From assembly GCA_000989185.1 (NCBI GenBank), contig LBNX01000005.1, positions 11,926 through 75,925 of the forward strand: 64,000 bases of DNA. Direction: 5' to 3'. Of this stretch, positions 2,081-40,026 are shown in pieces. Numbering within the stretch: position 1 is the first letter of the stretch; each line of letters starts with the position of its first letter. The notes below the pieces were generated by a model that searched no databases, had not been told where the DNA came from, and worked only from the letters and a program-made list of their open reading frames with translations. Position numbers and translations under genes: made by a program. Source of the DNA: a candidate division TM6 bacterium GW2011_GWF2_28_16 (lineage in GTDB: Bacteria; Babelota; Babeliae; Babelales; UASB340).

Positions 2081-3298
2081 TTATTCTGCTCGCTCCCAAT
2101 ATCCAGAAATATTTTGTTTAACTTGCCCACTAAGTTCTAAATCAAAGAGTTTTTCTTGCAAAACATTAATACCCAAATTTAATTTTAAACTTAAATCGTC
2201 TATCGACTTTGCTCGATCTAGAAAGTTTAATATTAAACTTTCGTGGTTATTTTCTTTTAAATTATTATTTTTACTAATTTTATTATTAACTTTATTTTCT
2301 TGTTTTTCAGGCACTTTTGTTTTAGAAACTTTTTCTTGTTTTAAATTATCTTGAACTTTTACTTCTGTTATTATCCCAAAATCTTCAAGAATATCACTTG
2401 TATTTTGTATTAATTTAGCACCATTTTTAATTAAATTATTACAACCAACACTTAATGGGTTTTCTATATTACCTGGCACAGCATAAACATTACGACCTTC
2501 GTCTAATGCAAATTGCGCTGTAATAAGTGCACCACTTTTTTGTGCGGCTTCAACAACCAAACAGCCTTGAGACAAGCCAGCAATAACACGATTTCTTGCT
2601 GGAAAAGTTCCCTTATCTGGACCCATTTTTAATGGAAATATAGAAACTAAAGTTCCTGCTCCATTAGCAATAGTTTTAAAAAATTTTATATTTTGTTCTG
2701 GATATGGGGCTAAAAGACCTGAACCCAAAGCTACTATAGTTTTGCCTCCGGCATGCACAGTATTTTTATGTGCAATAGTATCAACACCAAGAGCACCACC
2801 ACTAACTATAGTAATATTATTAGCTACCAACTCAGGAACTATTTTATCCAAAACTTTTTGTGAATAATTTGTAGCTTTACGCGAGCCGACTATAGCTAAA
2901 TTATTTTTATAATTATTAAGGCTTTCACCTTTAGAATAAATAGCTACAGGAGGAGCATATATAGATTTTAAAATTTCTGGATAATTATCATCCAAAAAAG
3001 TTGCCCAATTTATTTTGTATTTTTCTATTAAATTTAATTCTTGATCAAGCAACTTTTTATCTTGAAGCCCTGCAAAAATTATTTCTGCTTGATTTTTAGT
3101 AAACCCAAATTTATTTTCAAAATCTTGTTCTCTTAAATTATAAATTATAGACAAATCAAAATTTGTTTTTTGTATCTCAGGATGTTTTTGATTTACAATA
3201 AATTCATCAAATAATTTTTTGATAAACTTTAAAACAAGAACAGGGCCAACACCATAGATTAATGATAAATGCAGTAGTATTTCTTGATTTTTATCCAC
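2081..3298 (-). CDS. dprA: DNA processing protein DprA (Smf)
   Basis: Rossmann-like core GSRKATNYSQK...IVSGGALGVDTIAHKNTVHAGGKTIVALGSGLLAPYPEQN is diagnostic of DprA. The start is uncertain. The maximal ORF runs to a GTG at 3412 through a GC-rich element. I prefer the GTG at 3298, just downstream of that element and before the conserved N-terminal helical domain (EILLHLSLIYGVGP). Confidence 0.85.
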   Translation of the reverse strand: MDKNQEILLHLSLIYGVGPVLVLKFIKKLFDEFIVNQKHPEIQKTNFDLSIIYNLREQDFENKFGFTKNQAEIIFAGLQDKKLLDQELNLIEKYKINWATFLDDNYPEILKSIYAPPVAIYSKGESLNNYKNNLAIVGSRKATNYSQKVLDKIVPELVANNITIVSGGALGVDTIAHKNTVHAGGKTIVALGSGLLAPYPEQNIKFFKTIANGAGTLVSIFPLKMGPDKGTFPARNRVIAGLSQGCLVVEAAQKSGALITAQFALDEGRNVYAVPGNIENPLSVGCNNLIKNGAKLIQNTSDILEDFGIITEVKVQDNLKQEKVSKTKVPEKQENKVNNKISKNNNLKENNHESLILNFLDRAKSIDDLSLKLNLGINVLQEKLFDLELSGQVKQNISGYWERAE

Positions 3299-3324
3299 GA
3301 TGTTAACCCTTTTAAAATTGCATA

Positions 3325-3455
3325 CCCTTCGACTTCGCCTACGGCTACGCTCAGGGCGAACGTGACGTTCGTAGTAAGCATAGTCAAACAGCTGTACGAA
3401 GAAGAATAGCACGTTCGCGGTGAGCGTAGTCGAACCGTTCTGCGAACGTGCATTT
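3325..3455 (-). other. GC-rich structured element between gyrA and dprA (internal inverted repeats; possible RNA element or repeat insertion)
   Basis: About 55% GC in a ~28% GC background. The 9-mer gcgaacgtg occurs at 3356-3364 and 3442-3450, and inverted (cacgttcgc) at 3410-3418. A 22-nt arm at 3343-3364 pairs with 3410-3431 (19 WC + 1 GU + 2 mismatches). An alternative 10-bp stem pairs 3409-3418 with 3442-3451. Confidence 0.5.
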
Positions 3456-3462
3456 TATGCAT

Positions 3463-5988
3463 TTAGCTTTCTATATTTTCTGTTTTTTCTACTTGTTCAA
3501 CTTGCAAAACTTCAGCCCCATCACCATCTAATTCAAGAGCTTCTTCAAACGATGCTATTGTAGACAAACGCTGGTCACTGTCAAGACGTACAAGTCTTAC
3601 ACCCTTTGCTTGTCTACCCATTGTTCTAATTTCTTTAGGTGAAAGTCTTATAATTTTACCATTGCTATCGATTAACAAAATATTATGTTCTGGCGAAACA
3701 AGTGTAACACCTATGACAACACCATTACGTTTGTCTGCAGGTATTGTGCGAACTCCAATTCCACCTCTATGTGCAATTCTAAAGTCTACAATTTCTACTT
3801 GTTTTCCATAACCATTTTCTGTTGCAAACAACAATGCTTTTACTTTTTCATCTTCAGCTATAATTTCTAGCCCTACAACCTCGTCGCCTGATCGTAATTT
3901 AATACCACGAACACCTTCGGCTTGTCTGCCCATTGAACGAACTTCTTCTTCTTTAAATCTAATACCCTGGCCTTTTTTAGATGCAATAACAATTGTATCT
4001 TTACCATTACTTAAACCACAAAATACTAGTTCATCATTATCTTTAAGACCCAAAGCTCTAATTCCTGTGCTGCGAATATTATCAAAGGCTTCGCCTTCTG
4101 TCTTTTTGATTGTTCCAAATTTTGTAATCATGACCAAGAACTTTTTAGAAAGATCTCTGGTACTTAAAAGTTTAACAACTTTTTCGCCTTCAGTTAGTGG
4201 TAACAAATTAACAATAGCTCTTCCCTTAGAGGTTCGTGAACCTTCAGGTACTTGAAATACTTTTAAGCTGTACACTCTACCCAAGTTGGTAAAGAATAAT
4301 AACTCATCATGATTTTTGGCAACAAAAAGATCTTGTACAATATCTTCATTATCTGTAAGATCTGACATACCCTTTTTGCCTTTACCACCACGATGCTGAA
4401 CAGCATAAGTATCAAGTAAAACTCGTTTTATATAACCCTTTTGTGTTAAAGTTACAACAACTTCTTCATCAGAAATTAAATCGCCTTCTTCTAAAATATC
4501 TACAGCGCCCTGAATAACACTTTTACGTTTATCTGCATAGCTACGTTTAATTTCTTCTAATTCTTCTGTAATTACTCGTTTTAATTCTTCTTCATCTTTT
4601 AAAATAAATTCAAGTTTTTCTATTAATGCTTTTAATTCTTGAATTTCTATTCTTATTTTTTCTTGTTCCATACCTGTTAAACGCTGCAAGCGCATTTCTA
4701 ATATTGCTTTTGTTTGTGCAACGCTTAACTTAAATTTTTTATCCAATGCAACAATTGCAGCTTCAGTATCTTTAGATTTTTTAATAATATCTACAACTTC
4801 GTCTATACTATTTAAAGCAATTACAAGCCCCTGCAAAATATGTTCTTTAGCTTTATTTTTATCAAGATCAAATTGTGTACGTCTTGTTACAATTTCTTTT
4901 CTGTGTAATAAAAATTGATCTAACATTTCTCGCAATGTAAACACAGTTGGTTTATTATTATTTAAAGCAAGTAATAATATTGAAATTGAACTTTGTAGCG
5001 CCGTGTGCTTGTAAAGCTGATTTAATATAACCTGAGGAGCTTCGCCACGTTTTAATTCTATAACAACACGAATACCTTTTTTATTAGATTCATCTCTAAT
5101 ATTAGATATCCCTTCTATAATTTTATCTTTTACTAAATTAGCAATATTTTTAATTAAGTCAGACTTATTAACCTGATATGGTATTTGTGAAATTACCAAA
5201 GTAGGATTTTTTTCTTCACCTTCTATATCTATTACACCACGCAAAATAGCTTTGCCATGTCCCGTTTGATACGCTTTAATAATTCCAGCTCTACCACAAA
5301 TTACACCGCCTGTAGGAAAATCTGGTGCAGGAATAAGTGTAAATAATCTTTCTTCAGACATGCTTGGATTTTTTAAAATTTCCATAGCTGCAGTAACTAT
5401 TTCACCAAGATTATGTGGTGGAATAGATGTTGCCATACCAACAGCAATACCGTTTGAACCATTTATTAATAAATTTGGAATTTTACTTGGTAATATAGTT
5501 GGCTCTAATTTAGATTCATCGAAGTTTGGCATAAAAAATACTGTATCTTTTTCGATATCAGCCAAAAGATCACGTGCAATTTTTGCCATTTTAACTTCTG
5601 AGTATCGCATTGCAGCAGCATTGTCACCATCGATAGAACCCCAGTTTCCTTGACCATCTAATAATGGATATCTTTTAGAAAAATCTTGCACCATACCAAC
5701 CATAGATTGGTAAATTGCAGCATCACCATGAGGATGGTAATTACCCATAACTTCACCAACTACTGTTGCAGATTTTCTGTAAGCTTTTTCGTTATAAAGT
5801 CCAAGCTTGTGCATAGCATACAAAATTCTTCTGTGCACAGGCTTTAAACCATCTCTTACATCTGGCAAAGCTCTACTTATAATTGTAGACATTGCATAAT
5901 CTAAAAACGACGTCTTTAATTCTTTTTCTATAGAAAGTGGTGTAACCGCACCAATAAATTTATCTTTCTTTTGGGTATCGTTAGACAT
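3463..5988 (-). CDS. gyrA: DNA gyrase subunit A
   Basis: 841 aa. Contains ISRALPDVRDGLKPVHRRILYAM, the catalytic-Tyr region AAMRYSEVKM and the QRDR-like GNYHPHGDAAIY. C-terminal beta-pinwheel repeats are present. Confidence 0.97.
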   Translation of the reverse strand: MSNDTQKKDKFIGAVTPLSIEKELKTSFLDYAMSTIISRALPDVRDGLKPVHRRILYAMHKLGLYNEKAYRKSATVVGEVMGNYHPHGDAAIYQSMVGMVQDFSKRYPLLDGQGNWGSIDGDNAAAMRYSEVKMAKIARDLLADIEKDTVFFMPNFDESKLEPTILPSKIPNLLINGSNGIAVGMATSIPPHNLGEIVTAAMEILKNPSMSEERLFTLIPAPDFPTGGVICGRAGIIKAYQTGHGKAILRGVIDIEGEEKNPTLVISQIPYQVNKSDLIKNIANLVKDKIIEGISNIRDESNKKGIRVVIELKRGEAPQVILNQLYKHTALQSSISILLLALNNNKPTVFTLREMLDQFLLHRKEIVTRRTQFDLDKNKAKEHILQGLVIALNSIDEVVDIIKKSKDTEAAIVALDKKFKLSVAQTKAILEMRLQRLTGMEQEKIRIEIQELKALIEKLEFILKDEEELKRVITEELEEIKRSYADKRKSVIQGAVDILEEGDLISDEEVVVTLTQKGYIKRVLLDTYAVQHRGGKGKKGMSDLTDNEDIVQDLFVAKNHDELLFFTNLGRVYSLKVFQVPEGSRTSKGRAIVNLLPLTEGEKVVKLLSTRDLSKKFLVMITKFGTIKKTEGEAFDNIRSTGIRALGLKDNDELVFCGLSNGKDTIVIASKKGQGIRFKEEEVRSMGRQAEGVRGIKLRSGDEVVGLEIIAEDEKVKALLFATENGYGKQVEIVDFRIAHRGGIGVRTIPADKRNGVVIGVTLVSPEHNILLIDSNGKIIRLSPKEIRTMGRQAKGVRLVRLDSDQRLSTIASFEEALELDGDGAEVLQVEQVEKTENIES

Positions 5989-6229
5989 TTTAAAAGTCCC
6001 CCTTTTAAGTAACTTATTTTTGTACTTTAACTAATTAAATTCAATTAAAACTTATTTTACTACGCTTTGGCATGTTATACAAGTTTTTACCTATTTTTCA
6101 AGTCTTTTTTTTATTAGCTTAAATATCTTAAAAAGCTAAGCAAAATAAATAAAAAATTCTTTATAAATTTAAAAATAAAAGCTATGCTCTTTTGCAAAAT
6201 TATACCCAAATAAAAATAAGGGATTTTTT

Positions 6230-6703
6230 ATGAAACTTTTTAAAACACTATCTTTTTTAATAGTTACCTGCTTTTTTATAAATTTCGCAAAACCAATAAA
6301 AGTAAAATTATTTAATGAAAAAGGTAAATTTAAAACAAGCAAATTTACAAAAAAAATAGCCACTTTACTAGAAGATGACAATGTAAAAGAAACGCCCTTA
6401 ACCGAAAAATTCTCCAAAGTAGAATTGTTAACAAAAACCTTAAAAGATCTAAAATTTTATATAGTTTCTGTAAAATATAAGCTTTCAGAAATAGAAAATA
6501 CTAATAAAATAAATAAACCCTATTTTATTATAAGCGAAGAAATTTACCAAACAGGTAAAGAACAAGAGGTATTTAACCCAACAGTAACAAGAGTTTTGTT
6601 TGTTAAAAAAACAGAACAAGAGCTTATAAAGCTTATTAAAAAGCTTTATCTAGAATCTAAAATAGAAAAAATAGATATTAACGCAATTTTAAAAAAGAAC
6701 TAG
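6230..6703 (+). CDS. hypothetical secreted protein (157 aa)
   Basis: N-terminal signal-like segment MKLFKTLSFLIVTCFFINFA. Lys-rich, with no recognised domain. Confidence 0.5.
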   Translation: MKLFKTLSFLIVTCFFINFAKPIKVKLFNEKGKFKTSKFTKKIATLLEDDNVKETPLTEKFSKVELLTKTLKDLKFYIVSVKYKLSEIENTNKINKPYFIISEEIYQTGKEQEVFNPTVTRVLFVKKTEQELIKLIKKLYLESKIEKIDINAILKKN

Positions 6704-6715
6704 AAAATTAAATTC

Positions 6716-7837
6716 ATGATCAATAATTTAAACACTAAACCAAACGTTTTATTAATCTGCACCTTTTCTGTCTTTGGCGGCATAGAAATGCACGTGCTTG
6801 CAAAATATAAAACATTATTAAAAAATGGTTATAACGTTTTTGTAATAATTCCAAAAGACTCTATATTGGAAAAAATTTTTATACAAGAAAATTTAAATTA
6901 TTACAGCTTTAAAAAATCTTTCTTTTTAAAAGCTCATAGACAGCCTAGTTTAAAAAAGCTTATTAAAAATATTATTACAGAAAAAAATATAAACGTAATT
7001 CACTGTAATAGAGCCAAAGAGATTTTGTTATTAAACAAAATAGATAATAATATTAAAAAAATATTAACAAGACATGCTCAATCTTTGATACGTTCTAAAT
7101 ATGCTAATAACTTTGATGCTATAATTTCTGTAAATCAAGAATTTATAAAACAAGCTAAAAATAAATATATTGTAAAAAATATAATAGAAATACCCCCATT
7201 TTTTACAGATCACGAGTCTTTAGATTTTATACCAAGTGAAAATAATAAATTTAATTTTTTTAAAAAAAATTTTAATATAACTCTTAATAATAACTTGCCG
7301 ATAGTTACTCAAGTGGCATCACTTACTAATGTCAAAAATCACGAAATACTTTTTTATGCTGCACATAAATTAATTCACGAAAAAAACATTTTATTTAATA
7401 TTTTATTATGTGGCGATGGGTATAATTTAAAATCTTTAAAAAAATTAGCTAAAAAATTAAATATCGAAAATTATATTTATTTTTTAGGTTTTACAAATAA
7501 GCGCATAGAAGTTTTGTACCATAGTGATATAAGTTTATTAACCAGCAAAAACGAAGGCCGGCCAATATCTATAATGGAAGCAGCATTACTTAAAAAAGCA
7601 CTTATTGGCCCTACAAACACAGGAGTAACAAGCACAATAAAACACGAAAACACTGGTTTATTATTTGAAAATAATAATATTAATGATCTTACGAACAAGC
7701 TTGAAACTTTATTAAAATCACCAGAATTACGAAAAATATATAGCCAAAATGCTTTTGATCATGTAAAAAATAATTTCACATGTGATAAATCTTTAACAAG
7801 ATTAGAAACTTTATATAAAAATATATTAATTAATTAA
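6716..7837 (+). CDS. glycosyltransferase family 4 (GT-B, Glycos_transf_1)
   Basis: C-terminal E-x7-E type motif (SKNEGRPISIMEAALLKKALIGPTNTGV...ENTGLLFE) and ~370 aa GT-B length. Confidence 0.85.
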   Translation: MINNLNTKPNVLLICTFSVFGGIEMHVLAKYKTLLKNGYNVFVIIPKDSILEKIFIQENLNYYSFKKSFFLKAHRQPSLKKLIKNIITEKNINVIHCNRAKEILLLNKIDNNIKKILTRHAQSLIRSKYANNFDAIISVNQEFIKQAKNKYIVKNIIEIPPFFTDHESLDFIPSENNKFNFFKKNFNITLNNNLPIVTQVASLTNVKNHEILFYAAHKLIHEKNILFNILLCGDGYNLKSLKKLAKKLNIENYIYFLGFTNKRIEVLYHSDISLLTSKNEGRPISIMEAALLKKALIGPTNTGVTSTIKHENTGLLFENNNINDLTNKLETLLKSPELRKIYSQNAFDHVKNNFTCDKSLTRLETLYKNILIN

Positions 7838-19660: not shown

Positions 19661-19736
19661 GGGTTGCTAGCTCAATTGGTAGAGCAACAGACTCTTAATC
19701 TGCAGGTTCAGGGTTCGAGTCCCTGGCGACCCACCA
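19661..19736 (+). tRNA. tRNA-Lys (anticodon CTT), CCA encoded
   Basis: Manual cloverleaf. Acceptor gggttgc/gcgaccc, D arm gctc-aattggta-gagc, anticodon loop ctCTTaa, T arm caggg-ttcgagt-ccctg, discriminator a then cca. Confidence 0.93.
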
Positions 19737-19746
19737 TTTTTATTAT

Positions 19747-19833
19747 GCAAGGGTGGCGAAACTGGTAGACGCACTGGCCTTAGGAGCCAGCCCTAGAAAT
19801 AGGATGGGGGTTCGAGTCCCCCCTCTTGCACCA
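19747..19833 (+). tRNA. tRNA-Leu (anticodon TAG), type II with long variable arm, CCA encoded
   Basis: Acceptor gcaaggg/ctcttgc, anticodon stem ctggc/gccag with loop ctTAGga, long variable arm ccctagaaataggat, T arm ggggg-ttcgagt-ccccc. Confidence 0.93.
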
Positions 19834-24350: not shown

Positions 24351-25621
24351 AAAAAATAATAATATTATTATTTTATTTTATTTTTATCTCACACCTATAT
24401 GCCGGCAAAGGAAAAATAGTTTTTGAAAATAAATACAAACAAAGAATTTTAATAAAAATAGAAACTACTAATAATAAAAAATATAAAAAAATAATAAGCC
24501 CAAAAGATAAATGGGAATTAAAGTTATCGAGCAAAGTAGGTAGTCCAGATATAAAAGACATGTGGGTACAATTTCCAAAAAATGATCTTTTTGTTGTTGA
24601 TAAACACAAAATGAAAGGTTCTACACTCGATCACAGAAAATGGACGCGCAATATAAATGTAAAAAACAATCAAACAAGTACTGTAAAAATTTTTTATAAC
24701 GAAGATATAAACAGGTTTGAACGTGAAGTTTGGCGCAACAATAAAAAACAAGAAGATAGATTTAAACATTTAGGCAATATAACAAAAACAGAAATTATGT
24801 TTAAAAATATATCACCATACACAATTACACTACGTATTATGCTCACAGGATCTCTAAAATGGACCAATATAGAACTAGAACCAAACAGCATATACTTTTT
24901 ACAGCCAGGAACAAAAAATAATATAACCAAAAATTTAGATCACATGGTACTAGAATTTGCAAAACTTAAAGAATTAGAAAAAAATAATATTACATCAGAA
25001 AAACGCTGGTGGCCAAATACAATAAGAAATCAAAAAAATGAAAGTACAATAGTTTATATCGATTTTGACAAAATCTCCGGCAAATTTATACGATATGCAA
25101 TACGAAAAGGTATAATTAAAGAATCACTTAAAACAAATAAAGGCATAAGATTTAGCGAAAGTTATTTAAAATTACCTACCAGGCCAAAAACCAGAATGGT
25201 AAATATTGAAACTGAAATAGCAAAATTATACGGTAATATAGCATTGCTAGAAACCGAAAAAACATCACAACAGGCATTAAAAGCTTCAACAAAATGGGTT
25301 TTAGACAAAACCATGTTTGCAGCACTTGGGCTTAGCAATATGGCCCAAAAGGCAGCAACTGGAGCATTAAGTTTAATAAATATAAAAAATGCAGAACTTT
25401 CCGGAACAATTAAAGACCTTTTTTCGGGCAATATGCCACGGTTGTTAATAGATTGCGAAATTGCAGGCAAAGACAAAACATTTGACTTACAGTTTAACTT
25501 TAAACAACCAGACAATTTAGATACAATATCCAAAGAAATTAGTACTCAGACAGATAGTACACTAAAAGAACCAATACAAGATATTGAGCCGGGAGCAGAT
25601 ATAGAAACTGCAGAAGCATAA
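24347..25621 (+). CDS. secreted protein (424 aa), translationally coupled to the upstream large protein
   Basis: ATGA start/stop overlap with the upstream gene. Signal peptide MKKIIILLFYFIFISHLYA. Two beta-module-like segments (GKIVFENKYKQRILIKIE; TEIMFKNISPYTITLRIML) and an Ala/Leu-rich C-terminal region. Confidence 0.7.
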   Translation: MKKIIILLFYFIFISHLYAGKGKIVFENKYKQRILIKIETTNNKKYKKIISPKDKWELKLSSKVGSPDIKDMWVQFPKNDLFVVDKHKMKGSTLDHRKWTRNINVKNNQTSTVKIFYNEDINRFEREVWRNNKKQEDRFKHLGNITKTEIMFKNISPYTITLRIMLTGSLKWTNIELEPNSIYFLQPGTKNNITKNLDHMVLEFAKLKELEKNNITSEKRWWPNTIRNQKNESTIVYIDFDKISGKFIRYAIRKGIIKESLKTNKGIRFSESYLKLPTRPKTRMVNIETEIAKLYGNIALLETEKTSQQALKASTKWVLDKTMFAALGLSNMAQKAATGALSLINIKNAELSGTIKDLFSGNMPRLLIDCEIAGKDKTFDLQFNFKQPDNLDTISKEISTQTDSTLKEPIQDIEPGADIETAEA

Positions 25622-25730
25622 TTTCAATTTGAAAAGTTTAGCTTGTAGGTTGTTTTATCATAAATTTTAGCTATAATTATAGCCTATTACGTAATAGATT
25701 AAATTGCTTTTGATTTTTCGGGAGTTGAAA

Positions 25731-25865
25731 ATGTCCATAACTTATAAGCCAAGCAGAATAAAAAGAAAAAGAAAACACGGTTTTAGAGCAAGAATGAGCA
25801 CTCGTTGGGGCCGCAAATTGCTTAATCGCAGAAGAGCTGTAGGTCGTAAAAGACTTGCTGTTTAA
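25731..25865 (+). CDS. rpmH: 50S ribosomal protein L34
   Basis: Not in the ORF track. It translates to [44 protein letters not shown] (44 aa), the canonical L34 sequence. A gggag RBS lies 6 nt upstream. Confidence 0.95.
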
Positions 25866-25872
25866 AAATTTT

Positions 25873-25898
25873 AGGCCGATAAATATCGGCCTTTTTTT
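25873..25898 (+). terminator. rho-independent terminator/attenuator after rpmH
   Basis: aggccgat (25873-25880) / atcggcct (25885-25892) is an 8-bp stem with loop aaat, followed by a T7 run. Confidence 0.7.
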
Positions 25899-25926
25899 AT
25901 TTAAAAAGTAAATTAAAATTAAATTT

Positions 25927-26352
25927 ATGCAAAATAACAAAAAACTCTCTTGTCATGCTGAACTTGCTGTGCCCGACGAAGCTTTACGCAAAGTCTGGGA
26001 TTCAGCATCTAGAAATAAAAATACATCTTTTACAAAAAATTTATTTAGATTCGAAAAAAAAGAAATAGATTCAACTTTCTCAAATTCTCAAACCAAGGGA
26101 TATATAACAGGTTTAAAGTTACTACAAGCACCTGTTCAAAATAAAGATCAAGAATTTGGCAAACTATTAATAATAGCTTCTAGAAAAACAGGCAAAGCCT
26201 GTAAACGCAATAAAATAAGACGCCAATTAAGATCTATTTTTTATGAAAATAAGCTTTATCAAAAGCAAGTTAATTCAATAATTTTTATATACAAACAAGC
26301 TTTAAATTTATCTTTTGATAATTTAAAAGATTTTTTACAAAAAAATATTTAA
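25927..26352 (+). CDS. rnpA: ribonuclease P protein component
   Basis: Conserved RNR-like motif KRNKIRRQLRSIF and the position directly after rpmH. The N-terminus is about 25 aa longer than usual and contains a palindromic element. Confidence 0.85.
   Translation: MQNNKKLSCHAELAVPDEALRKVWDSASRNKNTSFTKNLFRFEKKEIDSTFSNSQTKGYITGLKLLQAPVQNKDQEFGKLLIIASRKTGKACKRNKIRRQLRSIFYENKLYQKQVNSIIFIYKQALNLSFDNLKDFLQKNI
25950..26009 (+). repeat. palindromic element copy 1 (ttgtcatGctgaa ... ttcagCatc) with 38-nt GC-rich core, inside the rnpA ORF
   Basis: 8-bp arms atgctgaa (25955-25962) / ttcagcat (26001-26008). The 38-nt core is 21/38 G+C. The flanks match the copy at 38759-38785. Confidence 0.5.
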
Positions 26353-26354
26353 TC

Positions 26355-26618
26355 ATGATTAATTTAAGATATAAATTTAAAAATATTTTTTTAAAAATTA
26401 TTTATTTTTTATTTAATATAATACGCCCATTTTTGGGGCCAAAAAACGTATGTATCTATCACGAAGCTTGTCCCAATTATGCAAAAAGACAACTCGAAAC
26501 AAGATCTATTTTTATAGCTTTACCATTAATAACATTAAGAGTGTTAAGCTGCAACCCGCTTACAGTTTTATACTGGAAAATAAAAGCTAAAATCAAAAAT
26601 TTAGGAACCTCATGTTAA
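26355..26618 (+). CDS. yidD: membrane protein insertion efficiency factor YidD
   Basis: Conserved Cys pattern C-x-Y-x-x-x-C-P-x-Y...R...C-N-P (CIYHEACPNYAKRQ...LRVLSCNP) and synteny rpmH-rnpA-yidD. Confidence 0.85.
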   Translation: MINLRYKFKNIFLKIIYFLFNIIRPFLGPKNVCIYHEACPNYAKRQLETRSIFIALPLITLRVLSCNPLTVLYWKIKAKIKNLGTSC

Positions 26619-36251: not shown

Positions 36252-37496
36252 ATGAAAAATAAATTTTTAGTAATATTTATATTTTTTTTAATAAATTTAA
36301 TAAATATAAATAATAAATTAAATTCACAGACTCTTGATATACAAGAGGCCGTAAATTTAGCGTACAAAAACAATCCAAGTTTAAAAGCTTTAAAATTTGC
36401 AATTTCTGCTAGCCAGGCAGGAGAAAAAGTTGCTATTTCTGGTTATTTACCACAAATAACTTTAAATAGTAATGAACAATTTGCATCAAGCACCAAAGGG
36501 CCACAAAATAGTACTACAATTAATGCTAGCCAGCTTATTTATAGCTTTTCTGGGCCAGAACGCTTGAAAAGAATTGCCAAAACAGAAACAGAGATGGCAA
36601 AATTAAATGAAAAAAACAGTCAAGATTTAATAAGAAAAGATGTAGAAATATCTTTTTTACAAACCTGGCTATTACAAGAAAAACAAAAAACAATTAAAAG
36701 TTTAGAAGTTGCGGCACAACAAACTATTAAAAAATCAGAAAATCAAGATAGAGTAAATTTATTGGGCCAAAATGACGTTTTAATAGCAAGTGCAAATTAT
36801 GCAAGCCAAATGTATAACGTTTATGCATATATAGACGAACTTTCTATTTCGCAAGATCAACTTGAATATTTGCTTGGTAATTCTTATAAAACAGATAATA
36901 ACAGCCCAGAGCTTGTTTGGGATTTTAATAAAAATACAACAGTAAACCCACTTGATAATTACTATAATTTGGCTTTAAAAAACAGAAAAGAATTAAAATT
37001 AAAAGATCAAGAAATTGCTGAATACGAAGAATATCAAAAATATTATAAGTATAATTATTTACCAGAATTTAGTTTAACGGGTCAAGCAAGTCGTGCTAGC
37101 CAAACTATCGCAAATAATATTGGCATAAACTTGAGCTGGAATTTATTTGATGGTGCATCAAATTATTATCAATCACAGCAATATAACGCAAATAAGTTAA
37201 AAGCATTACAAGAAAAAGAAAGCTTATTCCAACAAGTAAAATATGATGTTCAAAAAGCTTATCATGAACTTATGGCTTACATAAAACAATTAACAGCCAA
37301 AGACGCTGCCTACAAACAAGCAGATAATGAATATAATTTAGCAAAATTAAATTATAAAATTGGGCTTATATCAAAAGTAGATTTAGATAATTCAATGTAT
37401 AATTTCGAAAACGCACACTTTGCATGGCTGACTGCTAAAATTAATGTAGCTATAAAAGAAAGTGAATTAAATTTTGCCTGCGGATATCCAAAATAA
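36252..37496 (+). CDS. TolC-like outer membrane efflux protein
   Basis: Signal peptide. Tandem OEP repeats with typical starts (LDIQEAVNLAYKNNPSLKAL; NYYNLALKNRKELKLKD). 414 aa. Confidence 0.85.
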   Translation: MKNKFLVIFIFFLINLININNKLNSQTLDIQEAVNLAYKNNPSLKALKFAISASQAGEKVAISGYLPQITLNSNEQFASSTKGPQNSTTINASQLIYSFSGPERLKRIAKTETEMAKLNEKNSQDLIRKDVEISFLQTWLLQEKQKTIKSLEVAAQQTIKKSENQDRVNLLGQNDVLIASANYASQMYNVYAYIDELSISQDQLEYLLGNSYKTDNNSPELVWDFNKNTTVNPLDNYYNLALKNRKELKLKDQEIAEYEEYQKYYKYNYLPEFSLTGQASRASQTIANNIGINLSWNLFDGASNYYQSQQYNANKLKALQEKESLFQQVKYDVQKAYHELMAYIKQLTAKDAAYKQADNEYNLAKLNYKIGLISKVDLDNSMYNFENAHFAWLTAKINVAIKESELNFACGYPK

Positions 37497-37518
37497 ATTA
37501 ATTAAAATTAGGAGAGTA

Positions 37519-38721
37519 ATGAAATTTAAAAAAATTATTATATTTTTATTAATAATATTTTTTTTATTAAGCTCAAGTTATTTTATTTATAAACAATATT
37601 TTAAAGTATCTCCTGAATTACCATATAAAACAACAAATATAGAAAAACGCGATATATCACAAATTATAAATAGTTCAGGAACTCTAGAAATAAAAGATAC
37701 TTTAAAAATTGGCTCTCTAGTTGCTGGTACAGTAAAACAAATACTAGTCAAAGAAAATGATATTGTTAAAAAAGGCCAAATACTTGCAATAATAGATAAT
37801 GGCAAAGATGATACCGAAGTTCAAGCTGCTCTTGGCCAAGTAAAAAATACACAAGCTCAACTTGATTATCAAGAAAAATATTTTGCACGCCAACAAGAGT
37901 TATTTAAAGCAAATCAAATATCACAAGATTATTTCGAACAAGTTACAAAAGATCTAGAACAATTAAAAGCTAATTTAATAACAAATAAAGCAACACTTAA
38001 AAAGGCTGAAATAGAATATAAAAATACAAGAATAATAGCGCCTGAAGATGGCATAATTATAGCTATATTAGTAACAGAAGGCGAAGCCGTAACTGTAGAT
38101 TTAGACGCAACAGTTTTGTTTAAATTAGCTAAAGATCTTACAAAAATGGAAGCTCAATTAAATATAGACGAAAGTGATATTGGTCAAATAAAAAAAAATC
38201 AAAAAGTAAATTTTACAGTTTCTGCTTATCCAGATAAAAATTTTGAAGGATTTATAACAGACGTAAGTTTTGCACCAAAAATTATTAATAATATATTATC
38301 TTATAAAGCTAGCCTGTGTGTTGAAAATCAAAATATGTTACTACGCCCAGGAATGACAGTTAATGCTGATATAAAAATAGCAAAAAGCAAAAACTGCCTG
38401 GCCATAACAACTCAAGCTTTTCAGATAAATAATAAATTAATAGAAACAGTTGCAAAAAATTTACACCATAAAATAGAATTCGCTAGTAAAAATTCAATTA
38501 AAACACTAGAAGCTAAATGCCAACAGCAAGATGCTGTTAAAAATATTTGGCTTATAAAAGATAATAAATTTATAGAAACCCCAATAATAATTGGTATAAC
38601 GGATGACACTTATTACGAAATAAAATCTGGTATTACAGAACAAGACAAAATTATTATAGATATAGAAGAAACTGATGAACTTAAAAAGATTTATTCTAAA
38701 ATTTATGATAGTGCTGTATAA
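37519..38721 (+). CDS. periplasmic adaptor (membrane fusion protein, HlyD/MacA type), copy 1
   Basis: ATG at 37519 with an aggagag RBS. N-terminal TM, lipoyl-like motif (GTVKQILVKENDIVKKGQILAIID), coiled-coil hairpin and beta-barrel (IIAPEDGIIIAILV). Confidence 0.85.
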   Translation: MKFKKIIIFLLIIFFLLSSSYFIYKQYFKVSPELPYKTTNIEKRDISQIINSSGTLEIKDTLKIGSLVAGTVKQILVKENDIVKKGQILAIIDNGKDDTEVQAALGQVKNTQAQLDYQEKYFARQQELFKANQISQDYFEQVTKDLEQLKANLITNKATLKKAEIEYKNTRIIAPEDGIIIAILVTEGEAVTVDLDATVLFKLAKDLTKMEAQLNIDESDIGQIKKNQKVNFTVSAYPDKNFEGFITDVSFAPKIINNILSYKASLCVENQNMLLRPGMTVNADIKIAKSKNCLAITTQAFQINNKLIETVAKNLHHKIEFASKNSIKTLEAKCQQQDAVKNIWLIKDNKFIETPIIIGITDDTYYEIKSGITEQDKIIIDIEETDELKKIYSKIYDSAV

Positions 38722-38758: not shown

Positions 38759-38785
38759 TTGTCATCCTGAATTTATTTCAGGATC
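38759..38785 (+). repeat. palindromic element copy 2 (ttgtcatCctgaa tttat ttcagGatc), intercistronic hairpin
   Basis: 8-bp stem atcctgaa (38764-38771) / ttcaggat (38777-38784). The flanks are identical to the copy at 25950-26009, and the single stem difference is compensated (C-G versus G-C). Confidence 0.5.
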
Positions 38786-38796
38786 CAGGAATATTT

Positions 38797-40026
38797 ATGA
38801 ATATAAAAACTTTAACAAAAATTTCTATTAAATCACTTATGCGTCACAAATGGCGATCAGCGCTAACTATTTTGGGAATAATTGTAGGCATAGCTGCTAT
38901 TATTGCAACACTCGCTATTGGTTATGGAGCCGAAGCAAAATTACGCAAAAAAATACTCGCAATGGGTAAAAATTTTATTTTTATATTTTCAGGCAATGTT
39001 GCACAAGAAGGCAAAACTAATTTAAAACAAAAAGCCCGACCTAATTTTTTGACTAAAAAAGATGTCGATATTTTTAAAAAACAATGCCCACAAATAGATA
39101 AAATTAGCTCTGTAATGTTTTCACGCGATATAGTTAGTTTTAAAAAAAATAATATTCATTCGGATATAAAAGGTGGCAACCCAGATCTTTTAGAAATTAT
39201 AGATAGAAAAATTATTAAGGGTAATTTTTATTCCCAATTACAATATTTAAAAAGCAGTAAAGTTATTGTACTAGGTTTTAAAGCTGCAAAAGAACTTTTT
39301 GGTTTATCAAACCCAATTGGACAACCTGTACAAATTAAAAATATAACTTTTAAAGTAATTGGCGTTATAGATGAAATAAAATATTACGAAGGCTTTGAAG
39401 ATCCTAATTTTGATATTTATATGCCACAAACAACCATAGAAAAACAATTATTACATGACACTAGTCAAAATGTTCATGTAATAGTAATTACAGCAAAAGA
39501 TAAAGCTCAAATGCCATCTATAGTAAGAATTGTTAAAAGAATTTTAAGATTTAGACACAGATTAAAGGACAAAGATCCTGATGATTTTTCTATTATAGAT
39601 CAACAAGAAATGGTCAAAGCAGCAAAAGAATCTTCTAATATTTTAAATTTATTATTATTAATTATTGCTGCAATATCTCTTTTTGTTGGCGGTATAGGTG
39701 TTATGAATATTATGCTAGTTTCTGTGTCAGAAAGAACTCAAGAAATTGGTATTCGCATGGCAATAGGTGCAACAACAAAAAATATACTGTCACAATTTTT
39801 AATAGAAACTATAACACTATGTACACTAGGTGGCATAATGGGCATTATTTTGGGAATTATAACCCCATACATAATCGCACATTTTACAGACTGGCTAGTT
39901 ATACACAAACTTTCTTCGATAATATTATCTTTTACAATTACAACTATTATTGGACTAATTTTTGGATATTATCCAGCAAAAAAAGCTTCTAAATTAAATA
40001 TTGTTGATGCTTTAGTTAATGAATAA
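38797..40026 (+). CDS. MacB/FtsX-type ABC transporter permease, copy 1 (no adjacent ATPase)
   Basis: N-terminal TM (WRSALTILGIIVGIAAIIA), periplasmic MacB_PCD region and C-terminal FtsX domain (GGIGVMNIMLVSVSERTQEIGIRMAIGA). Confidence 0.9.
   Translation: MNIKTLTKISIKSLMRHKWRSALTILGIIVGIAAIIATLAIGYGAEAKLRKKILAMGKNFIFIFSGNVAQEGKTNLKQKARPNFLTKKDVDIFKKQCPQIDKISSVMFSRDIVSFKKNNIHSDIKGGNPDLLEIIDRKIIKGNFYSQLQYLKSSKVIVLGFKAAKELFGLSNPIGQPVQIKNITFKVIGVIDEIKYYEGFEDPNFDIYMPQTTIEKQLLHDTSQNVHVIVITAKDKAQMPSIVRIVKRILRFRHRLKDKDPDDFSIIDQQEMVKAAKESSNILNLLLLIIAAISLFVGGIGVMNIMLVSVSERTQEIGIRMAIGATTKNILSQFLIETITLCTLGGIMGIILGIITPYIIAHFTDWLVIHKLSSIILSFTITTIIGLIFGYYPAKKASKLNIVDALVNE

Follow-up and report, generated by a model that had tools for sequence, protein, structure and literature searches.

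The window, meaning the whole 64-kb stretch of DNA analysed here, is AT-rich (~27% G+C across its length) and belongs to an uncultured groundwater Dependentiae bacterium, the same sequence having been recovered from groundwater metagenomes; its RnpA homologues, like the source records, point to Dependentiae/Babeliales. It contains an rpmH-rnpA-yidD cluster, in which the open reading frame (ORF) of rnpA, the gene for the RNase P protein RnpA, harbours a composite 60-nt hairpin element close to its 5' end (Table 1). With high probability this feature is a hairpin repeat, non-autonomous and oriented, from the TGTC/CGTC-tagged repetitive extragenic palindromic (REP) superfamily, alias Ssn-related motifs (SRM), and is translated in the N-terminal tail of RnpA. 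The least expected parts of the finding are a 33-nt module nested within the hairpin loop and its presence or absence between natural alleles.

The element reads TTGTCATGCTGAA, followed by a 38-nt core cttgctgtgcccgacgaagctttacgcaaagtctggga (21/38 G+C) and TTCAGCATC, and its arms ATGCTGAA/TTCAGCAT constitute a perfect 8-bp inverted repeat; the flanks, core and arms are exactly those described in the original prediction made from the sequence. The window has two occurrences each of the 13-mer TTGTCATSCTGAA (100 shuffles) and of the full two-arm pattern, where shuffled sequence gives an expectation of 0.00; a chance palindrome was considered and rejected. The rnpA locus sequence is identical in two more independent assemblies (ENA, JGI) and in several groundwater runs; as the ENA and JGI assemblies agree exactly, an assembly artefact was likewise rejected. 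Direct reading of the frame 5' of the conserved KNLFRFEKKEID finds two ATG, GTG or TTG codons only, namely ATG 25927 and GTG 25969, and none between the latter and the RnpA core, as had been claimed. Since this is the only open rnpA frame and no start codon lies downstream of the block, the element must be translated, and since the ORF begins at ATG 25927, all 60 nt fall inside it. The original prediction had held that at least half of the palindrome is translated as an extension of ~25 aa; the predicted translation stands and extends to the whole element, while the length has to be revised to 31 residues more than in the closest orthologue. The element codes for part of residues 8-28 (..SCHAELAVPDEALRKVWDSAS), and the predicted peptide of the N-terminal tail reads MQNNKKLSCHAEL...

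The identity of the ORF product as RnpA is given by Pfam PF00825 over residues 45-139 (E 7e-12) and by a match to TIGR00188. AlphaFold assigns pLDDT values of 46-61 to residues 1-40 and of 85-96 to the remaining RnpA fold. The extension had been proposed to be an indel coinciding with the element, and the orthologues agree with this. Twelve RnpA homologues (37-86% core identity) are free of it, being 109-120 aa long and starting 4-10 residues before (N/D/E/K)LFRF, and the idea of a conserved protein extension was rejected. The nearest relative (L001), with 86% RnpA identity and the same gene order, has a protein that starts MNINVKNLFRFEKK and is 31 residues shorter; its DNA holds 23 nt in place of the 129 nt of the window (25905-26033) that form the block with the element, and this 23-nt state recurs in contigs from two other runs. 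The lone longer homologue (P0006 of L246, 142 aa) is long because the gene caller placed its start within a hairpin dimer that lies 5' of the normal ATG. A search of the GTDB species genomes returned no close RnpA locus. The terminator-like hairpin between rpmH and rnpA is kept in the relatives L001, L244 and L245. Further hairpins of the same superfamily occur in this spacer elsewhere: L245 (1400-1500) has one between the rpmH terminator and rnpA, 18 nt before an intact ATG, and L246 (1-180) has a dimer upstream of an intact start, with stems (ATCCTCGA, ATCCCGGG) that differ from that of the window. Among the relatives with data, the two closest, L001 and L244, have no hairpin of this superfamily at the rpmH/rnpA spacer.

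The pattern TTGTCATSCTGAA-N(4-64)-TTCAGSATC was searched in metagenome and species-genome collections and matched at least 120 loci in each, so that the motif reaches well beyond the two copies known to the original prediction; by chance, with uniform base composition assumed, an estimated ~17 matches would fall in the genome collection, distributed across the whole range of gap lengths. Among the 277 matches listed, 236 are exactly 27 nt long with a 5-nt loop, the commonest loops being CTTGT (93), TTTAT (47), CTCGT (25) and CTTGA (19), and the variable S...S third pair is complementary in 276; the tag is invariant in all of them by construction, being required by the search pattern. The flanks are unconserved except for a T after ATC (1.1 bits, 221 copies), and an inverted partner hairpin, often with another stem, frequently lies 15-40 nt away. 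Hosts among the matches listed include Bacteroidota, Patescibacteria, Alpha- and Gammaproteobacteria, Spirochaetes, Nitrospirae, Melainabacteria and two Rickettsia genomes, in which the exact matches sit among classic GTCATTCCCGC-type hairpins. The analogy to Rickettsia palindromic elements (RPE) that had been drawn for the rnpA element is more than a resemblance, as the tag, the stem and, in the 27-nt form, the loop agree with the CGTC/TGTC-tagged REP superfamily, to which RPE-4 and RPE-6 have been assigned (PMC3733652). As a separate observation, the left half alone, (T)TGTCATCCTGAAC with 6-8 nt, is repeated in tandem three to five times and ends in one complete hairpin at L196:7259-7988, L203 (~5015-6872), L162 and L165; simple hairpin copying does not account for these arrays.

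The second copy in the window was found where it had been reported. It is intergenic, lying 37 nt past the stop of ORF 37474-38721 and 11 nt ahead of ORF 38797-40026 (start ATG 38798), with an AGGAA Shine-Dalgarno sequence directly 3' of it. Its arms are ATCCTGAA/TTCAGGAT, and the single difference from the rnpA copy, G to C in the left arm, is compensated by C to G in the right arm. The exact 27-mer has 30 occurrences among the fetched loci. The tag strand of both hairpin copies is the + strand. The GC skew of that strand is negative in nearly all 2-kb bins of window 1-64000 (cumulative -4.3); the whole window therefore lies on one replichore.

The 38-nt core was described correctly as sequence in the original prediction; it is, however, composed of a normal 5-nt loop and a discrete 33-nt module rather than of variable filler. 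The module is GC-rich, is located in the hairpin loop right after CTTG and has an inner stem in which CCCGAC (25972-25977) pairs with GTC-T-GGG (25993-25999); it thus comprises a covarying stem of its own (CCCGNC / GNC-T-GGG) around a small GC-loop-GC hairpin. A homologous 60-nt copy at L083:2964-3023 has a core identical at 30/38 positions, arms with a compensated C/G pair and one A:T pair switched to G:C. The module core pattern CCGNCGWAGCTTTAYGCRRAGNCTGGG was found at 90 genome loci against ~0.02 expected by chance (an estimate), many of them in Babeliales/Dependentiae, Verrucomicrobiota and Patescibacteria, and within hairpins of several different outer arms. At pair 4:22 of this pattern (window 25976:25994) the combinations are C-G in 53 cases, G-C in 30, A-T in 3, T-A in 2 and T.G in 1, with 3 mismatched; the stem of the module is therefore under selection, and its bulged T is conserved. 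The position after CTTG recurs in three independent comparisons of long and short forms, i.e., the rnpA alleles described below, the left against the right copy of L083, and the downstream against the upstream copy of L248. The 33-nt module is itself a structured repeat, separate from the hairpin and widespread. A stronger proposition, that it (C[YK]GTGC-CCGNCG-WAGC-TTTA-YGCRAAG-NCTGGG) is a currently active nested mini-element which enters the loops of tagged hairpins precisely after CTTG, is tentative and rather doubtful; were it true, the module would be a hairpin-in-hairpin mobile DNA without a known mobilising enzyme, and its gain and loss in present-day groundwater populations would yield in-frame length variants of an essential protein. 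The sole amino-acid difference in the 90% cluster of the protein, W24R (JGI variant P0014, 141 aa), falls in the element. It affects the TGG codon 25996-25998, the first base of which is the bulged T of the inner stem of the module.

Presence and absence of the module are seen within the population. A 527-nt contig of run X4 (depth 5) matches 25720-25965 and 25999-26160 with no mismatches in 408 nt of flanks, and skips 25966-25998. The hairpin of this short allele, TTGTCATGCTGAACTTGATTCAGCATC, is a canonical 27-mer with six occurrences elsewhere; the long and short rnpA alleles differ by exactly 11 codons and both keep the frame, the extra residues being 31 in the long and 20 in the short allele. 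The assembler used 31-letter words, which exceed the 27 nt of the short hairpin, so that an artificial join via another copy would be unlikely. The skipped 33 nt include GTG 25969, which leaves ATG 25927 as the only possible start in the short allele and makes the whole hairpin coding; as read from the frame, RnpA must in this allele be made from ATG 25927 and would carry the hairpin-encoded peptide. The predicted 130-aa protein of the short allele has no exact match in the protein collection. Several samples, collected over years, hold the same long allele. Depth in the source sample is ~130-140 over the core as against 10-15 over the flanks, and contigs at the depth of the window organism itself carry the long element with other flanks, which points to at least one further long copy in the same genome. 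Other contigs matching 25950-26021 in runs X1, X2, X3 and X4 hold the long element with 1-3 differences (e.g. A25990G); they share 13 nt 3' of the hairpin (TAGAAATAAAAAT) and then diverge into ATTCAATAATATTC..., so that the repeated unit may extend rightward beyond the hairpin.

Table 1. Coordinates of the rnpA element, its parts and the surrounding features in the window
Feature	Position	Strand	Remarks
rpmH (ribosomal protein L34)	25731..25865	+	First gene of the rpmH-rnpA-yidD cluster; Pfam PF00468, E 1.7e-19
Terminator-like hairpin and T-run in the rpmH/rnpA spacer	25873..25898	+	From a terminator scan; 8-bp stem with 5 G-C pairs, T tail
rnpA ORF, 141 aa	25927..26352	+	First in-frame start ATG 25927; conserved fold from ~residue 36 (KNLFRFEKKEID)
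ACAAAAAA, left copy of the 8-nt direct repeat	25937..25944	+	Brackets the extra block
Composite 60-nt hairpin element	25950..26009	+	Tag TTGTC 25950-25954; left arm ATGCTGAA 25955-25962; 38-nt loop region; right arm TTCAGCAT 26001-26008; tail C 26009
33-nt loop module GCTGTGCCCGACGAAGCTTTACGCAAAGTCTGG	25966..25998	+	Codons 14-24 (AVPDEALRKVW); present or absent between natural alleles; boundary ambiguous by 1 nt
In-frame GTG, the only alternative start	25969..25971	+	Inside the 33-nt module; gone in the short allele
ACAAAAAA, right copy of the 8-nt direct repeat	26032..26039	+	Brackets the extra block; homology with L001 resumes here
yidD	26355-26618		Downstream of rnpA
Second copy, canonical 27-nt form TTGTCATCCTGAA-TTTAT-TTCAGGATC	38759..38785	+	Intergenic

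Outside the window, the hairpins are associated with small GIY-YIG nucleases. In L083, the 60-nt long copy (2964-3023) and an inverted 27-nt copy (3318-3344) flank a 113-aa GIY-YIG ORF (Pfam PF01541, E 5e-15), and Dependentiae loci likewise encode GIY-YIG proteins between inverted hairpins. Over 1.67 Mb of fetched loci, 12 of the 17 GIY-YIG homologues lie at most 200 nt from a pattern hairpin. Pfam places the associated proteins in the general GIY-YIG domain only, and the nearest solved structures are those of UPF0213 proteins (E ~2e-3). A literature search for a link between GIY-YIG and repetitive extragenic palindromic repeats returned nothing relevant. Apart from this association, at L083:2964-3308 the reverse complement of the long element encodes the C-terminal tail of the GIY-YIG ORF (..MDPETQASHKATPDTASSG, up to the stop); in another organism, then, this element family is translated as well, but from the other strand.

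The hairpin has an unpaired (T)TGTC tag, then an 8-bp stem starting with AT, a short loop that is normally CTTGN and, after the complementary arm, a short tail. The rnpA copy is a long variant, with the 33-nt module nested in the loop directly after CTTG. From these observations the following course may be proposed. The hairpin may have reached rnpA by the spreading of the family via single-stranded DNA (ssDNA), which is tied in other organisms to small GIY-YIG (Ssn) nucleases. Such nucleases cut a few nt upstream, and the extra block has its left edge 5 nt ahead of the tag. The gain and loss of the module would come about through insertion of the module itself into the loop or else through exact deletion mediated by the hairpin. 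Each of the canonical pieces (27, 33 and 60 nt) has a length divisible by three, and stops are absent from two of the element's three sense frames. The resulting tail is presumably tolerated because it precedes the RnpA fold as an appendage without structure. As RNA, a hairpin in the first 30 codons would probably dampen rnpA translation, a putative effect.

The history of the block allows for two readings. If ATG 25927 is ancestral, the block amounts to 93 nt after codon 6, leaving MQNNKK/NLFRF against MNINVK NLFRF. Alternatively, the block landed in the rpmH-rnpA spacer just 5' of an ancestral start (~26011-26017), the ATG of which decayed to AGA/ATA, and an in-frame ATG 84 nt upstream took over, so that the hairpin was captured and not inserted; this is a serious possibility, though not quite the one to be favoured. 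Capture is suggested by the post-element residues RNKNTSFTKNLF, each of which has its counterpart at the N-terminal end of the P0003 orthologue (MKKNIKSTKNLF), by a gap-affine DNA alignment that sets L001 ATGAATATAAATGT against window 26015-26028, and by the same-family spacer hairpins that stand ahead of intact starts in L245 and L246. Nevertheless, it needs more steps (start loss, in-frame start gain and an indel), MAFFT pairs the two ATG regions and places the gap inside the ORF, and MQNNKK/NLFRF is equal in length to the corresponding segment of the closest relative. The 8-nt direct repeat that brackets the block speaks for insertion too; it may be a target duplication, or may have arisen by chance in A-rich sequence (background expectation ~0.07 per locus). 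Because the sequence is A-rich and of low complexity, neither alignment, be it with an ancestral start at 25927 or with one at ~26011, is reliable. Under both readings the element would be translated. It is extremely improbable that the rnpA ORF is not expressed as annotated, being disabled by the insertion or a decaying copy. In favour of this reading, a canonical start at the ancestral position and a Shine-Dalgarno sequence are both lacking; against it, the ORF is intact, its core shares 86% identity with that of the nearest orthologue, all invariant RnpA residues are kept and the fold is confidently predicted, the allele persists in several samples over years and both length variants stay in frame. 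Moreover, rnpA is single-copy and essential in bacteria.

The hairpin could also be kept for a host job, acting where rpmH meets rnpA as a signal in RNA or DNA, for instance one that lowers rnpA translation or stabilises the mRNA, with translation of the element as a by-product. Of the five Dependentiae relatives examined, three carry a superfamily hairpin in the stretch from the rpmH terminator to the rnpA core, their stems all being different, the second copy in the window adjoins the Shine-Dalgarno sequence of the next gene, and REPs in general are mostly found downstream of genes and are plausibly transcribed (Di Nocera, De Gregorio & Rocco, 2013; PMC3733652). This recurrence fits a permissive or preferred insertion site equally well, however, and the hairpin is lacking in L001 and L244. 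Further, RNA folding is modestly better than in shuffles for the antisense strand and for the second copy (z = -2.1 to -2.7), but not for the sense strand of the rnpA copy, so that a dedicated structured RNA is not supported, and an Rfam scan of 25600-26400 (E <= 10) found nothing relevant; a host signal is therefore unlikely. A different origin, as a GTAG-type REP or REPIN moved by a RAYT tyrosine transposase or as a miniature inverted-repeat transposable element (MITE) with terminal inverted repeats moved by a DDE transposase, would accommodate the frequent inverted dimers of the hairpin, which resemble REPINs, and the 8-nt direct repeat around the block, as a target duplication would give. 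It is highly improbable, though, since the tag is TGTC and not GTAG, since CGTC repeats do not flank tyrosine-transposase genes (PMC3733652), and since the genes between inverted copies are those of GIY-YIG nucleases (at loci outside the window, which was itself not searched for RAYT); the direct repeat, with its background of ~0.07, is weak evidence in A-rich DNA.

The assignment to a translated TGTC/CGTC-tagged hairpin has several observations to contend with, all of which weigh against it to some extent. Translation is read from the reading frame, and the sole RNA run is tiny. No Shine-Dalgarno sequence precedes ATG 25927, nor is there one before rnpA in the relatives L001, L244 and L245. 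The shuffle-level folding of the sense strand of the rnpA copy (z = -0.9) and the provenance of the short allele, known from one low-depth contig in one run, are further such points. The 64 kb contain two hairpin copies, both single and without a dimer, and no GIY-YIG gene was detected in the window by tblastn with five queries or by a profile from 24 homologues. The AT-rich flanks of the extra block are not accounted for by the proposed course. Finally, the published degenerate SRM string (PMC11893778) HGTCWYN(0-2)YYVSBRHN(0-5)WNVSBRGN(0-2)RNCYNB has no match in the rnpA copy, the short allele, the second copy or anywhere in the window; the window copies differ from it at stem positions, whereas the L245 hairpin upstream of rnpA does match.

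Elsewhere in the window, a GC-rich inverted repeat (...ctacgctcagggcgaacgtg ... cacgttcgcggtgagcgtagtcgaaccg) occupies 3316-3454, between gyrA (3463-5988, minus strand) and dprA. It is similar to the CGTTCG..GAGC..GTCGAA.. hairpins beside GIY-YIG genes in the Dependentiae locus L251, and also to a loop insert at L083:3833-3930. The listed dprA ORF (2081-3412, GTG start) extends into this repeat (N-terminus ..ERHVRPERSRRRSRRV), an extension that is probably false. The four tRNA genes of the window are Lys-CTT and Leu-TAG (19661-19833), Met-CAT (55986-56062) and Leu-AAG (57809-57895).

The rnpA element is an unusually clean case of a selfish hairpin that must be translated, because no alternative start codon is available, and it resides in an essential gene of single function, in a phylum (Dependentiae) from which repeats of this kind are not known to have been described. 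It extends the picture of selfish DNA in protein-coding genes beyond Rickettsia and ties it to the recently characterised Ssn nuclease/hairpin system. The long and short natural alleles constitute a ready pair for addressing the neutrality of the peptide and the gain or loss of the module. For annotation, it is of consequence that gene callers extend or mis-start ORFs at such hairpins, as with P0006 in L246 and dprA in the window, and that the published SRM string overlooks an abundant, AT-richer subfamily.

Among known systems, the closest is the CGTC-tagged REP superfamily, in which the tag is CGTC, often TGTC or CCTC, the stem has 8-9 bp with A-T first and second pairs, the loop has 4-5 nt of few major types and the tail consensus is CCA (PMC3733652). 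These repeats are present in many copies per genome, mostly as head-to-head dimers, and in many phyla; they include Neisseria dRS3, and their families 1 and 4 are the Rickettsia RPE-6 and RPE-4, while no transposase has been found for them (PMC3733652). The window copies share the unpaired (T)TGTC tag, the 8-bp stem opening with AT and the short tail, which continues as C-CA in the second copy and as C-TA in the rnpA copy. The loops of the second copy (TTTAT) and of the short rnpA allele (CTTGA) have 5 nt as published, whereas that of the long allele has 38 nt with the nested module. Head-to-head dimers are common for this hairpin in other organisms; the two copies in the 64 kb of the window are single. 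The stem ATSCTGAA was assigned to the superfamily by anatomy, and Dependentiae are not among the phyla reported in PMC3733652. Copies inside genes, including N-termini, have been reported before, with the caveat that many N-terminal cases are probably extragenic (PMC3733652); the rnpA copy, by contrast, has no downstream start.

The Ssn system comprises small GIY-YIG proteins flanked by NTS/SRM hairpins, which bind the tag and hairpin as ssDNA and cut a few nt upstream; in the published assays, loop identity was dispensable and loop extensions were tolerated (Chenal et al., 2025; PMC11893778). Translated copies, Dependentiae and a nested loop module are not discussed in that work. Shared with it are the oriented hairpin, the conserved upstream GTC tag and the inverted copies around small GIY-YIG genes (in L083 and others, not in the window), and the tolerated loop extensions fit the long-loop rnpA variant.

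Rickettsia palindromic elements, reportedly described by Ogata et al. in 2000, offer the parallel of a palindromic repeat in frame within an essential gene of a lineage with an intracellular lifestyle, the peptide being tolerated by the protein; as in RPE insertions, the open frame is kept and the element is missing from orthologues. RPE-1 is a longer element, of about 100-150 bp. It differs in sequence, and the rnpA insert lies at the extreme 5' end, where it supplies or displaces the start region and splits no domain. A literature search on RPE or palindromic elements in Dependentiae returned nothing relevant. The link to RPE runs via the assignment of RPE-4 and RPE-6 in PMC3733652 and the exact 27-nt matches in two Rickettsia genomes. 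The REP/REPIN-RAYT systems, with a GTAG tag, a Y1 HUH transposase as partner, inverted doublets and a presumed mobilising gene between two inverted repeats (Nunvar, 2010; Bertels & Rainey, 2011; PMC3116915), share short tagged hairpins arranged as inverted doublets with a candidate mobilising gene between inverted repeats; they differ in that the tag here is TGTC and the partner a GIY-YIG nuclease instead of GTAG and a Y1 transposase. Thus, the superfamily, its in-frame residence in genes and its GIY-YIG association are known, and what is new is a member in Dependentiae.

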